This document shows, in pieces, positions 1 through 5,730 of a stretch of DNA of 64,000 nt (within the stretch, counting starts at the first letter, position 1; each line of letters begins with the position of its first letter). Source of the DNA: Carcharhinus longimanus (taxonomy: Eukaryota); the NCBI GenBank assembly GCA_030264375.1, contig JASCQW010000119.1:24027606-24091605 (forward strand), in the 5' to 3' direction. Made by a program: the position numbers and the translations under genes. The notes beneath the pieces were generated by a model. It saw only the letters and a program-made list of their open reading frames with translations. It ran no database searches and had not been told where the DNA came from.

Positions 1-116
1 GCACCGACCCCTGGGGCACTCCACTAGTCACCAACTGCCAATCCGAATAGCACCCATTGACCCCCACTCTCTGCCTCTTGAAAATCTAAAAACACCACAT
101 CCACCGGCTCCCCTCT
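1..116 (-). mobile_element. CR1/HER1-type LINE RT fragment
   Basis: Minus-strand GEPVDVVFLDFQ motif joined to the VTSGVPQGSV segment (reverse complement of GACCCCTGGGGCACTCCACTAGTCAC). Confidence 0.85.
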
Positions 117-731
117 GGATGCCATCAGTGCGATGGTGATGGAATGCAGCTCCAGCAGCAACACCAGCCTTTTATCCTGGATCAAGATCTCCATAGTGGT
201 TGTCATCCTACTAGTGTTGACCTCAGTGTACTAGTATGCTGACACAATGACCTCAGAGTGAACACGGGGGAACTCTTCCATCGTATGTTGCAATCTGTGG
301 GATACATTTGAAAATGATGCCTGATATTCCTGTGTCTGTCACTGCAGTTCCAACACCTGAATTGATAGTAAGCCCGTATGCTTGTCATCTGGCAGAGACT
401 CAGCAGAATCCTTGCCTCCAGCAGTCTTCCGAGAATGAAGACCATTCTCAGTAACCAGATTGTTAACATTCCTCACAGCGTTGTTGTGACTTTGAAAGGT
501 TACACAGTCATTGTAAAGGGACCTTGAGGAATATTGTGCAGAGAACTTAACCACATTAACCTGGAACTCGGCTTTCTTGGCAGCAAGGAAAAGAAGTTAA
601 GTTAACAAATGGTGGGGCAACTGAAAAGAGTTGGCCACTGTGTGGACAATCTGCAGTCACGTACAGAACATGATCAAGGGTGTCACTGTAGGTTTCCATT
701 ACAAGATGAAATCAGCGTGTGCTCATTTTCC

Positions 732-1268
732 TGTTCTCGACTTGGGTACAAACAACACTAGGCACTAAGACTACTCAGGCTTTCAAGCTTTAATTACTTG
801 ATCACAAGTGAGAACATAATGCAGCGCAAAGCATTGCAAGGTGTCCTGTTGATTCACACAGAAAATGTAGCAGTTATAGTTCGTTATATCTTGCTCTTTG
901 GAATCTTGACATTGAGAGGGTCTTATTTTCATCCTGTGACCAAGGCTGGGAGCACAGTGTTTTTGAAACTAACACAAGGTTTAGATTAGTTGTTTATCCT
1001 GAATACAGAAGCATTGACCTCACCGAAGGCCTCGTTTGCTAATAAGCAATTTCTATTACTTGACAGAGTTGTTTTTCATAACTTAATTTCCACAATTGTT
1101 GTAACTTAATTTTCCATACCAGCATCTGCAGTTTTGATCTGCTTTTAGCTATAGTTTCACAAGGTCCAGCAACCCCATGGTGCTTTATTTGAAATGAGCA
1201 TTCTTAATCTTGCAAAACGAAGTGAATTAAATATTTGGCCGTAGCTGAAATTCAGCTTAATTTCCAAA
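732..1268 (-). mobile_element. Solo-LTR-like insertion (probably Gypsy) in the RPL9 retrocopy
   Basis: 537 bp non-coding insert that starts TGTTCTC and ends TTTCCAAA (an internal sub-repeat at 1081-1094 ends TTTCCACA). Flanks TTCC/TCCC form a 4-bp TSD with one mismatch. It has no GT-AG ends. Strand is inferred. Confidence 0.65.
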
Positions 1269-1567
1269 TCCCCATTTATGTGGTTGTTTAGGAAACAGGA
1301 TTTCTGGTAGAAATCCATAACTTCCTGGAAGAAAAGTATATTTGTAGAGTCCGTATGAAGCCAGGTGTTTCATGTATAGTTTCCCAGGCCCAGAAAGATG
1401 AGCTTGTCCTTGAGGGAAACAAGATTGAATTTGTGTCAACTTCTGCTGCCCTGATTCAACAGGCAACAACAGTCAAAAACAAAGATATCTGAAAATTTCT
1501 GGAAGGTATTTAGGTCTCTGAGAAGGGTGCAGTTGTTGACACCACAGCATAGACATGATGGATTAAA

Positions 1568-1678
1568 GCTGCTCTCATTCAACAAGCAACAACAGTGAAA
1601 GAAAAGGATTCTCGTAATTTCCTGGATAGCACCTATGTGAGCGAAAAGACCACTGTGGTTCCACAGTTTGCTGAATAG
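1568..1678 (+). pseudogene. RPL9: Second, paralogous copy of the RPL9 C-terminal coding segment inside the retrocopy 3' UTR
   Basis: Translates [36 protein letters not shown]. It starts 16 nt after the first stop and lies before the poly(A) signal. Confidence 0.93.
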
Positions 1679-1868
1679 CTCTGCTCTCTCAGATAGAAAT
1701 CATTGAATAAATTTTATGGGCTGAAAAAAAATGCAGTCCTCTGAGTGTTGGTGACCATGGATTGGCCTGCCTCTGCCGATTGTGACTCAAAATCCATGTT
1801 ATGCTCTGTAGATTGTGACAGTAAGCCTGTGACAAAAAAGTAATCCAGTAAAACATAGCTAAACTTTG

Positions 1869-2147
1869 GGGCTGGAATTTTCTTCCCTTGAGGGCCTTCT
1901 CTCTGTTGCAGCCATCCTGCAGACATTGAGAAGGCAATGCATGGGTATTGTTTAAATATGGTGGCTGCTGTGATAATTTGCTTGGATCATGGCGGGACTG
2001 CTGAATCACAGGCTACCTGACTGCAATGCAATATTGTTCCTGTTGATGCATTTGATGATATGAAAAGTATAAAATTGGGTGTGAAAACCTGCCATTGCGG
2101 CTGGCTGGAAAAAGCCACTTTTCCCACCACAGAGTAGAAAATCCCAC
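1869..2147. mobile_element. PIF/Harbinger-type MITE
   Basis: Imperfect TIRs GGGCTGGAATTTT ... AAAATCCCACC. Confidence 0.6.
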
Positions 2148-2225
2148 CATGGTCTCATGGATAAGATGAGCTCTGGACAGCATGAGGGCAGATATAACAG
2201 AAACTAAACATAGTTGGAAATTATA

Positions 2226-2413
2226 GGCGGGATTTTCAGGCCCTTCCTGCTGGTGGGATCTCCAAATCTCACTGAAGATAACCCCCTGAGAGGTTCCCCA
2301 AAAATGGGGCAGGCAAAATGCTTTGGACTGCAGTAGGACTGGAAAATCCCGCCAGTAGTAAACTGCCTCCGTTGCCTGAAAACAATGTGGGGGGCTGCTG
2401 GAAAATCCCAGCT
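2226..2413. mobile_element. PIF/Harbinger-type MITE
   Basis: TIRs GGCGGGATTTTC ... GAAAATCCCAGC, with an internal copy GGAAAATCCCGCC at 2341. Confidence 0.7.
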
Positions 2414-3499
2414 AATATATTTTATAGGGATGAGGGTGGATGTGAGCAAGTGATTGAGTCCAACAGTAGCTGCAGAAATGTCACACTGCATGGAGGGATG
2501 AAGCTCGGTAGTGGAAGTTTGAAATTACAGTTTTAAATGGCTTAGGGGAGAGATTTTCCCAAGGGTGGAAAAATACTTAGGAGCAGCAGGGGTGGGGGAA
2601 GTTAGTGAAATAAGGAAGCATTCAGTGCTGGTCTTATCTGTAATTGACACACTGAGAGTGGCAAGGTCACGGAGATGGGAAGGTCAAGGGGGTGATTGTG
2701 AGTATGTGTATGGAGGGGGAGGTTTGGTAGGTGGGAAGTAAGCTCAGAGGAGAAACAGTCTGATGAGTCAAGGAGGAGATTGAAAAAGGTCCATTACATT
2801 GTGAAATATATGCTCTCCACACTACCAGAACATGTAGAATTAACAAAGAAACAACATATGTTTTATACACATCTGCACTTTTCGGATAATAGCCAAAGTA
2901 GCCTAGGGGGAGGTAAGAAGAACTTCTGTTTTACTCAGTGAGATATGATTTTGAATATATTCTGCAAGCAAATTCAATTTTAACTTACAAAAAGGAGGTG
3001 GAAATACACTCAAGGAAATGTAGGGCATCCGTGATTGAACAGCTGACACAGGCATGATGGACTGAATGGCCTCCTTCTGTGATTGTACATGGGTACTAAA
3101 CTGATGAGGAGATTGTCCACTCCTTATAGAACCCATCCACTTTTCATACCCATTATAATGCAGTGATCTCCCCCATAAACCTGCTGCCAAGATAGTGAAA
3201 AGTGAAAATTACTCCTGTGGAGTCTGAACAGAGGTTGACTTGTCATAACAACAATCTTCCCTTTGCTTTATCAGCACTGACAGTTTAAACCATACATAGC
3301 CCTCAAACTGCTGGCTCAAAGATTGGCATTGTCGCTGAAATGCTGGCTGTGGACCGACTAAATAATTCTTTAAGAGGGAGGCTGTGATTACTGAGTTATA
3401 AATCAATGAAGCTTCAGGCAACCAGCAATTTAATAAGCAGCCACCAATCAATGTCGCGACCTCAGGCGGGGGCCTGTCCTTGACCTGGACCAGCGCTAT

Positions 3500-3931
3500 C
3501 TATTTATTTTAAGTTTATTTATTAGTGTTACAAGTAAGCTTACATTAAGGGTGGAATTCTCCAGTCTAAAAGCCAGAAATTCCCATTCGACTGTCAATGA
3601 GGTTTCATGTTGTTCAGATCCCTTCAGCTAAAATTCCAGTGGTAGGTGGGATGGGAGAATTCTGACCTAACACTGCAATGAAGTTACTGTGAAAATCCCC
3701 AGTCGCCAACTCTAGCACTTGTTCGGGTACATTGAGGGAGAATATAACATGGCATAACTAGCATGTCTTTCAGACTATGGGAGGAAACAAATCGGAGCAC
3801 CTGAAGGAAACCCACACAGACACGGGGAGAACATGCAGATTCTGCACAGACAGTGACCAAAGCCAGGAATTGAACTTGGGTTCCTGGCACTGTGAGGCAG
3901 CAGTGCTAACCACTGTGCCACTGTGTTGCCC
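3500..3931 (-). mobile_element. V-SINE variant (HE1 head and core, alternative tail ...TTCACAGTAACTTCATTGCAGTGTTAATGTAAGC...AATAAATAAAC)
   Basis: tRNA-like head GGCACAGTGGTTAGCACTGCTGCCTCAC on the minus strand plus V core. The same tail occurs at 7490-7640, 13945-14255, 28790-28977 and 50325-50680. Confidence 0.9.
3549..3667. mobile_element. PIF/Harbinger (Tourist-like) MITE nested in a SINE
   Basis: TIRs GGGTGGAATTCTCC / GGAGAATTCTGACC and an exact TAA TSD (3546-3548, 3668-3670). Removing it restores the SINE sequence CATTAACACTGCAATG. Confidence 0.88.
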
Positions 3932-4073
3932 ATATATGGTTGTTTCCATTACATGGTCACAGATAGCTCTGACACAAAAATAAGACAAATATCTTTTGCA
4001 AATATATTGGATCACTTTTTTTATTGGAACAAGAACATTTTTGGGGATGGTGAGGAAGTTTGGCTTCTTGACG

Positions 4074-4678
4074 TAGAACATAGAAAATAACTGCAGGAGT
4101 AGGCCATTCGGCCCTTTGAGACTGCACCACTGTTCAATACGATCATAGCTGATCATGCACTCTCAGTATCCCACTTCCGCTTTCTCTCAATACCCCTTGA
4201 TCCCTTTAGCTGCAAGGGCCAAATCCAGCTCCCTCTTGAACATATCTAATGAACTGACCCTAACAGCTTTCTGCGGTAGAAGTTCCAGAGGATCACAACT
4301 CTAAGTAAAGAAGTTCTTCCTCATCTCAGTCCTCAATTCTTAGACTGTGACCCCGAGTTCTGGACTTCCCCAACATCGGAAACATTCTTCCCACTTGTCC
4401 AGTCCCATCAGAATTTTATATGTTTCTATGAGATCCACCCTCATTCTTCTAAATTCCAGTCAGTTCAGGCCCAGTCGATCCAGTCTTTCTTCATATATCA
4501 GTCCTGACATTCCGGGAATCAATCTGGTGAACCTTTGCTGGACTCCCTCAATAGCAGGAATTTCCTTCCTCAACTAGGAGACCAAAACTGCACACACCAC
4601 TCAAGGTGTGGCCTCACAAATGCCTTGTATAATTGCAATAAGACATCTTTATTCCTATACATAAATCCTCTTGCTAAG
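4074..4678 (-). mobile_element. CR1/HER1-type LINE 3' fragment
   Basis: TAGAACATAGAA tail repeat, GGAGTAGGCCATTCGGCCC tail, and C-terminal ORF2 sequence (GAGACCAAAACTGCACACA). Confidence 0.9.
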
Positions 4679-5730
4679 AAGGGCAGCACGCTTTCTGATG
4701 TAAGATTACTCAAATGAGTTAATATTCTGTATGCCAGTGACAGGAAGAGACTTCAGCCATTTAAATATGTAGGCCTCGCAAGCTTGCTTTTGGTCATCTG
4801 TAAGGCCAAAATGGGTGGGGACGGGGAATGGGGAGACCACTGAACACCAATGATGCCGTAACCACAAGGATGGCCATCGCAATGGAATGCCCAGAAAACA
4901 GGTAATCCCTCCAGAACCTGCTGGCTGCTTGCTGGGGTTCACTTAGGGGTCTCACCAGGTATTGACTAGCACTCACAACAGAGGCAAAATGTCCAGAGAG
5001 GTAGGAAGTACCACTTAATTGTCCACTCCAATGGCTCAAGTGGCCTCATAGTGGGCATCCAGGCAGCCAACATTCCTGCTGCTGATTAAATGACATTGTG
5101 ACAGGAGGACGTTTGGCACCCCAACACATTACTGCACCATTTTCTCCAGCCTTCCTGCTTCCCAGCTCACTCCCAAAGGACCTAGAAAATGCCAGTCTTT
5201 ATCTTTCCCATATAATCAATGCTGTTCTTGAGATACATTCAAAATGGACAATACTGGATTGGCTTTGATCTAACATACCAAAAATAAAATGGTCCTTGAC
5301 TCCCTGTATGGAAAATGCCAGATTGGATTCAAAGCATTAATGTGAGACTGTACTATGTGAATACATTCCATACCGTGACAGCTAAACATTACCTGAGTCT
5401 TCCTAATATTAGAGCACAAAAACTTACTATGTGCATCCTCAGCATTCCAGTGCAATATGCTTTCGACCAAAGCATGTTGCACTGGAATACTTAGGCTGCA
5501 CATAATAGACTTAAGAACGCAAGTCTTCCGAAATATGTCCCAGGGGTCCCTGAGATCATTAATGACTCACATCTTGCGATCTAACAGGCTATGTAATTCC
5601 CATTGGTCAATCTCTTACTTTAGTGAAACAGTTTGTTGCTAGTTGAATCTGAGAAGTCTGTCTTCCCAGCCATTCATTGTATTTGCACCTGTAGAAGTTT
5701 GTGTAAGGCTAGCTTCTGCTGATCCTTCAC

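Follow-up and report, generated by a model that had tools for sequence, protein, structure and literature searches.

It has long been asked whether ribosomes that differ in composition also differ in function, and most vertebrate cases of ribosome heterogeneity involve separate paralogous genes, such as RPL3/RPL3L and RPL22/RPL22L1, whose effects are mixed with dose. RPS24 yields alternative C-termini, and tissue-biased variants are known. Alternatively spliced homologous exons that arose by tandem duplication have been described, for example in CDC42, CALU and FYN, from a list that starts with human genes and in a main text that contains neither 'rpl9' nor 'ribosomal' (PMC4494069). For RPL9, the gene of uL6, one sentence of a zebrafish preprint states that alternative isoforms are evident on purified ribosomes, and the same preprint reports that one variant dominates by more than 10-fold for all ribosomal proteins in embryos and larvae (PMC11383705). 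These isoforms are likely the two described below; the accessible part of the preprint does not say what differs between them, and its heat maps may already contain tissue patterns. In the PDB, the zebrafish ribosome entry has the N169 form of the protein, as do all of the best 5 of 52 matches, which were aligned. Peptide evidence for isoform B was not encountered. Here we analyzed a shark RPL9 gene whose last coding exon is duplicated in tandem, with two modes of splicing that are likely controlled by cell type, and which gave rise to a retrocopy elsewhere in the genome; our confidence in this reading as a whole is high.

The window, a 64,000-nucleotide stretch of Carcharhinus longimanus DNA, contains at about 434-1731 a decayed, intronless retrocopy of an RPL9 (uL6) mRNA, an ordinary processed pseudogene (Table 1). 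Blastn and spliced-model alignment showed that the introns of the parent gene are missing and that exons 2-6, A and B follow one another directly, interrupted only by an inserted repeat. The upstream frame of the retrocopy matches Pfam Ribosomal_L6, and its disabling changes comprise a 2-nt deletion with a frameshift, in-frame stops and the 537-bp insertion. This insert had 42 genome matches at E<=0.001 (40 scored of 600 candidates; 76-86% identity excluding self), and no terminal inverted repeats were found in it. Many genome copies of this dispersed repeat of about 530 bp are near full length. The window copy of exon A encodes residues 158-192 of the N169 isoform and ends in a stop at 1550-1552 followed by a 16-nt UTR, with decay stops at 1490-1492 and 1511-1513. 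The copy of exon B is 3' UTR here and corresponds to residues 158-193 of the K169 isoform made when A is skipped, with its stop at 1676-1678. A 6-nt flanking repeat (421-426 and 1733-1738) is a possible, weak target-site duplication, being one of four such 6-nt repeats, none of them longer. The only tandem repeat detected in window positions 1-5000 was a single unrelated 17-mer.

Table 1. Features of the RPL9 retrocopy in the window.
Feature	Position	Strand	Basis or remark
5' part: parent exons 2, 3, 4 and start of exon 5, intronless	434..731	+	blastn to parent exons, spliced-model alignment
Retrocopy ATG	435-437	+	5' part also carries frameshift and stop
537-bp dispersed repeat, within the exon 5 part	732..1268	.	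gap in parent alignment
Remainder of exon 5 and exon 6, ending in G of split codon (phase 1)	1269..1445	+	parent alignment
Cassette exon A copy (parent G000:C1:81687546-81687668)	1446..1568	+	115/123 bases identical to parent exon A
Terminal exon B copy (parent G000:C1:81688461-81688613)	1569..1723	+	coding part 101/110 bases identical to parent exon B
AATAAA poly(A) signal	1706-1711	+	also in parent exon B
8-A run, poly(A) tail remnant	1724-1731	+	four of the A's also in parent

A genome search with the copies returned 18 matches, with four exon-sized blocks on C1 near 81.685-81.689 Mb, and seven parent exons with canonical AG/GT ends were mapped at this locus. No non-coding first exon was found at the locus; the tilapia gene, for which the available part of the source lists 8 exons, fits a first exon plus the seven mapped here (PMC7072992). 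Downstream of exon 6, an intron of 1,828 nt leads to exon A, and one of 792 nt separates A from exon B. Exon A, 123 nt long, has a stop codon 16 nt before its own GT donor, and exon B, the sole terminal exon, has its own stop and AATAAA. The two exons are identical at 64 of their first 80 bases and share the same phase-1 junction, each with an AG acceptor, and are thus tandem-duplicated homologous exons of one phase. Inclusion of A yields a 192-aa uL6 with N169, and skipping of A yields a 193-aa uL6 with K169 and a different tail. As for other arrangements, separate poly(A) sites typical of alternative last exons were not seen, in that no AATAAA lies within exon A, which has a GT donor, and exon B alone has one. 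Strict mutual exclusion does not hold either, as an A-to-B joint occurs in three sequencing runs (X1, X2, X6) and in retrocopies. An Rfam search of the locus gave 0 matches and no known snoRNA. The tails of the parent proteins are closest to shark sequences (P0156, P0005). The whale shark entry P0005 is named WD repeat-containing protein 19-like and has the RPL9 exon B peptide at its end, probably because the model was wrongly joined to a neighbouring gene.

We compared parent exons A and B over residues 159-184. The results showed 13 synonymous and 3 non-synonymous steps (pS 0.76, pN 0.049, binomial p 7e-7), a contrast between two exons of one gene rather than a cross-species codon dN/dS. Two of the three non-synonymous steps are a TCT/AGC serine switch, and the sole core residue change is N169 in A versus K169 in B; the tails diverge from residue 185. 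The frame of exon B is intact and its divergence is biased to silent sites. An earlier note, made from the window alone, had described two similar peptides with a 15-nt gap after the first stop, which translation of 1445-1731 reproduced, and the AATAAA and A-run that it placed 3' of the second copy are both present. Its phase-1 exon junction at the start of similarity was recovered in the parent, where both exons begin after an identical phase-1 junction with AG. The agreement in amino acids that it saw between the copies is true of the standard core of parent exon B, whereas E for K, S for I, N for K and ST for GI in the window copy are decay. Likewise, its list of silent differences is supported by the synonymous steps in the parent core, except that TTT/TTC is retrocopy decay, the parent exons being identical there. 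Its old duplicated last exon exists as two homologous last coding exons, but copy A, which has a GT donor of its own and is spliced onto B, is a cassette and not terminal. The parent holds two AG-flanked segments a 792-nt intron apart and no single terminal segment, and both window copies map to separate parent exons, in line with the proposal that their divergence predates retroposition.

Public sequencing runs were then used for the splice joints. We found 23 runs, none on record as RNA, so that RNA type is a guess; eight were analyzed, namely seven likely RNA runs and one large DNA-like run (X15). Joints from exon 6 to B were found in four of the seven likely RNA runs (contig depth in brackets: X1 (1294), X2 (2124), X10 (2673), X14 (3006)), and joints from exon 6 to A also in four of seven (X1 (448), X6 (5820), X10 (131), X12 (46)), although part of the joints have a short side of only 19-30 letters. 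The joints have GT..AG ends, and each of the two exons is therefore spliced to the common upstream exon 6. In X14, one 873-nt contig runs through exons 4-5-6-B, the shorter side of the joint comprising 83 letters, and exon A is uncovered. No exon 6-to-B joint is listed for X12, and X4 collapsed into an intron-holding contig. In the DNA-like X15, intron contigs had a depth of 8-9, and exon 6-to-A and A-to-B joints were seen at that depth, as predicted from retrocopies; exon 6-to-B was not seen. Two runs under organism label C, from different studies, differ: X6 shows only exon 6-to-A and X14 only exon 6-to-B. This contrast suggests a strongly regulated switch between A and B, but it is only a hint because contigs show presence rather than absence or level, contig depth is not expression and rare variants are dropped. 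An extra acceptor in intron 6 (L014:3627, G000:C1:81686626) is joined to exon 6 in X1 only and leads to a stop after three in-frame codons; its product is possibly an NMD or feedback isoform. In six of the seven likely RNA runs, contigs cover one or both introns flanking exon A (L014:2719-5461), while intron 4 is barely covered, and the introns around A are possibly detained introns.

At least eight further RPL9 retrocopies (L015-L022) are present in the genome, several broken by later insertions. Among the nine examined, including that of the window, exon A is present in seven and reduced to its last 6 nt in one, a further one is cut at the start of B, and the exon 6-to-B form is clearly captured in 0 of the 9. 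L015 was considered as an exon 6-to-B retrocopy and left unclassed, its upstream match being no better than shuffles (p 0.36). The germline form is likely A because seven of nine retrocopies include this exon.

Protein searches and cluster look-ups gave at least 367 proteins among those listed, of which 94 vertebrate ones, chosen by name, were classed at residue 169. Cartilaginous fishes were divided between K169 (6/13) and N169 (7/13), as were ray-finned fishes (K169 10/24, N169 12/24, motif missing 2/24). N169 was found in 20/22 amphibian, 31/33 amniote and 2/2 lamprey proteins, and K169 in 0/22, 0/33 and 0/2, respectively. Since classing by residue 169 alone is circular, same-species pairs were checked. 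In Callorhinchus, Salarias, Neoarius and Gadus the two proteins are identical to residue 165, and isoform X1 is always 193 aa with K169 and its partner 192 aa with N169; in the present genome K169 goes with the downstream and N169 with the upstream exon. In fused teleost models (P0001, P0002, P0172) the N-type copy precedes the K-type copy, as it does here. Full-length cDNA accessions of the B form number at least five in Callorhinchus, many teleost models encode this form as well, and a metagenome pattern scan recovered one teleost contig with exon B, its AG acceptor, stop and AATAAA, which does not reach exon A. These observations show that the feature is real, old and conserved, and from the sequences sampled we infer that the duplication is older than the divergence of cartilaginous from bony fishes. 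The age and purifying selection proposed in the earlier note thus agree with the isoform pairs of chimaera and teleosts and with pN far below pS between the parent exons; its reading of the splicing, in which inclusion of A turns B into 3' UTR and skipping of A gives a second L9, matches the three kinds of joint, including the exon 6-to-B junction in four of seven likely RNA runs.

Type B was found in 0 of 55 sampled tetrapod proteins (22 amphibian, 33 amniote) among the members listed, and from this absence we infer that exon B ceased to be used as coding sequence in tetrapods. In lamprey proteins N169 occurs together with the T185 of type B, a combination that an unduplicated ancestor might have had. 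The four ray and skate uL6 proteins seen (P0009, P0018, P0023, P0123) all have K169 with D at 183, two of them labelled isoform X1 or X2; judging by these, batoids may have lost or homogenised exon A. K at position 169 also occurs in some invertebrate uL6 (e.g. P0036, P0110), and K169 may for this reason be tolerated rather than special. Several teleost models (P0001, P0002, P0006-P0008, P0019, P0024, P0025, P0039, P0172) are mis-joined A+B or RPL9 fused to a neighbouring gene; the mis-joined ones are an annotation artefact caused by the duplicated exon.

A loop of uL6 contacts helix 95 of the sarcin-ricin loop, with the residues unnamed in the available part of the source, and a human uL6 variant alters stop-codon readthrough (PMC6954397). 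AlphaFold2 modelling of the chimaera B form (mean pLDDT 83) places residues 168-169 in a loop that connects helices 151-164 and 172-176 and leaves the tail after 185 without secondary structure, with pLDDT 46 in its last block. Our literature search found no paper naming the uL6 residues that touch the sarcin-ricin loop; we take the contacting loop to be that which holds residues 168-169. Altering the charge of this loop could modulate factor binding or fidelity. The effect we favour, at rather less than even odds, is that the added positive charge in loop 165-171 together with the changed tail would tune the factor-binding side of the 60S subunit.

The proposed switch would act on exon A. With A included, a 192-aa N169 uL6 is made from an mRNA in which exon B is 3' UTR; with A left out, a 193-aa K169 uL6 with the other tail results. 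Under the NMD 50-55 nt rule, the distance of just 16 nt from stop to last junction would let the A-including mRNA escape decay. TGCATG, an Rbfox-type motif, has only two occurrences in the 6,896-nt gene, both upstream of exon A at distances of 53 and 23 nt (Poisson p 2e-4 to 8e-4, computed after the motifs had been spotted), forming a cluster near the acceptor in the upstream intron as in Rbfox-repressed cassettes. Upstream Rbfox sites usually repress the exon. Judging from motif position, Rbfox-type binding at these two sites could repress A; it is the most likely switch, though our assignment is tentative, and Rbfox-rich cells would then make isoform B. The teleost contig without exon A has a TGCATG 44 nt upstream of exon B, which counts against an Rbfox switch at A. 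In Callorhinchus, the assignment of cDNA clones to tissues by accession order fits each of the 10 labelled accessions in the non-redundant set; in the redundant set (accessions listed, block start assumed) it assigns B to gill/intestine and spleen and A to kidney, liver and testis (runs test p 0.17). This tissue assignment is a weak lead and favours neither a muscle nor a nerve pattern. In the broadest and rather unlikely version, jawed fishes would build two cell-type-specific classes of ribosome through one Rbfox-controlled uL6 splice switch, in place since before the split of sharks and bony fishes and lost in tetrapods, in which exon B would persist solely as a non-coding last exon. In this version, skipping of A would exchange the tail and also the loop that faces the sarcin-ricin region (N169 to K, often with K168 to R).

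The most serious competing explanation, to which we assign a little less than an even chance, is that the two proteins are interchangeable and the exon pair is kept for control at the RNA level, through 3' UTR length, a junction just after the stop, intron retention or feedback on uL6 dose, exon B coding only as a fallback when A is skipped. The proteins themselves are compatible with this, their cores differing at one or two residues and their tails varying freely between species, in keeping with the unstructured, low-confidence model tail beyond 185 (pLDDT 46 in the last block). So are the transcripts, given the covered introns around A in six of seven likely RNA runs and the one run in which an acceptor leads to a stop after three codons, and so is the restriction of sampled tetrapods to type A. 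What such control does not lead one to expect is the long retention of a fixed pairing, N with 192 aa and K with 193 aa, in four species pairs from chimaera to teleosts.

Two other explanations fare much worse. That exon B is just a 3' UTR exon, and the exon 6-to-B joint splicing noise without a kept protein, would sit well with the lack of a clear exon 6-to-B form among nine retrocopies and with the N169 sequence of the zebrafish ribosome entry; yet it is very improbable in the face of an intact, silently diverging frame, of a run (X14) in which exon 6-to-B is the only form listed, and of the Callorhinchus full-length cDNAs, at least five, and many teleost models that encode B. An origin of the second copy during or after retroposition, by a template switch to a paralogous mRNA or by local duplication, has next to no probability, and we found nothing in its favour: in the parent the two exons stand in the same order, separated by an intron, and the identical A-B junction recurs in other retrocopies and in likely RNA contigs. 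This origin is refuted by the two-exon parent locus and the joints in the RNA runs.

A tandem-duplicated, alternatively spliced exon in parent RPL9 means that one gene with one promoter gives two uL6 forms, so that a one-gene test of ribosome specialization would be possible in zebrafish. Gene-level expression studies would miss a switch between A and B. An unusual gene structure, with the stop codon in the second-last exon, would also be accounted for as what remains of an exon duplication; human RPL9 has a non-coding last exon. In the full-text literature, with subscription journals mostly outside its scope, no account of the RPL9 exon duplication, its age, regulation or loss was found, and the accessible parts of five papers (PMC8647923, PMC4321881, PMC10156603, PMC6579518, PMC9932298) contain nothing on it. 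The earlier note had left existing annotation as a question, which is answered by automated RefSeq models that, for several fishes, include the two forms under the labels isoform X1 and X2. The exon pair is already in automated annotation and apparently not described as such.

Compared with known systems, these RefSeq models (Callorhinchus, Salarias, Neoarius, Gadus and others) contain the same two proteins, 193 aa with K169 and 192 aa with N169, but as automated entries only, silent on origin, conservation, regulation and loss. RPS24 varies by microexons at a short tail, and RPL3/RPL3L and RPL22/RPL22L1 are separate genes, whereas in RPL9 a whole 35-residue structural exon is duplicated within the gene. 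As far as the available text of PMC4494069 describes them, the homologous exons of that study resemble exons A and B in being tandem coding duplicates of the same phase, with one used per protein, an old jawed-vertebrate origin and purifying selection on both. Unlike those cases, exons A and B are exclusive in the protein and not in the mRNA, since inclusion of A keeps B as 3' UTR, and the gene that carries them encodes a core ribosomal protein.
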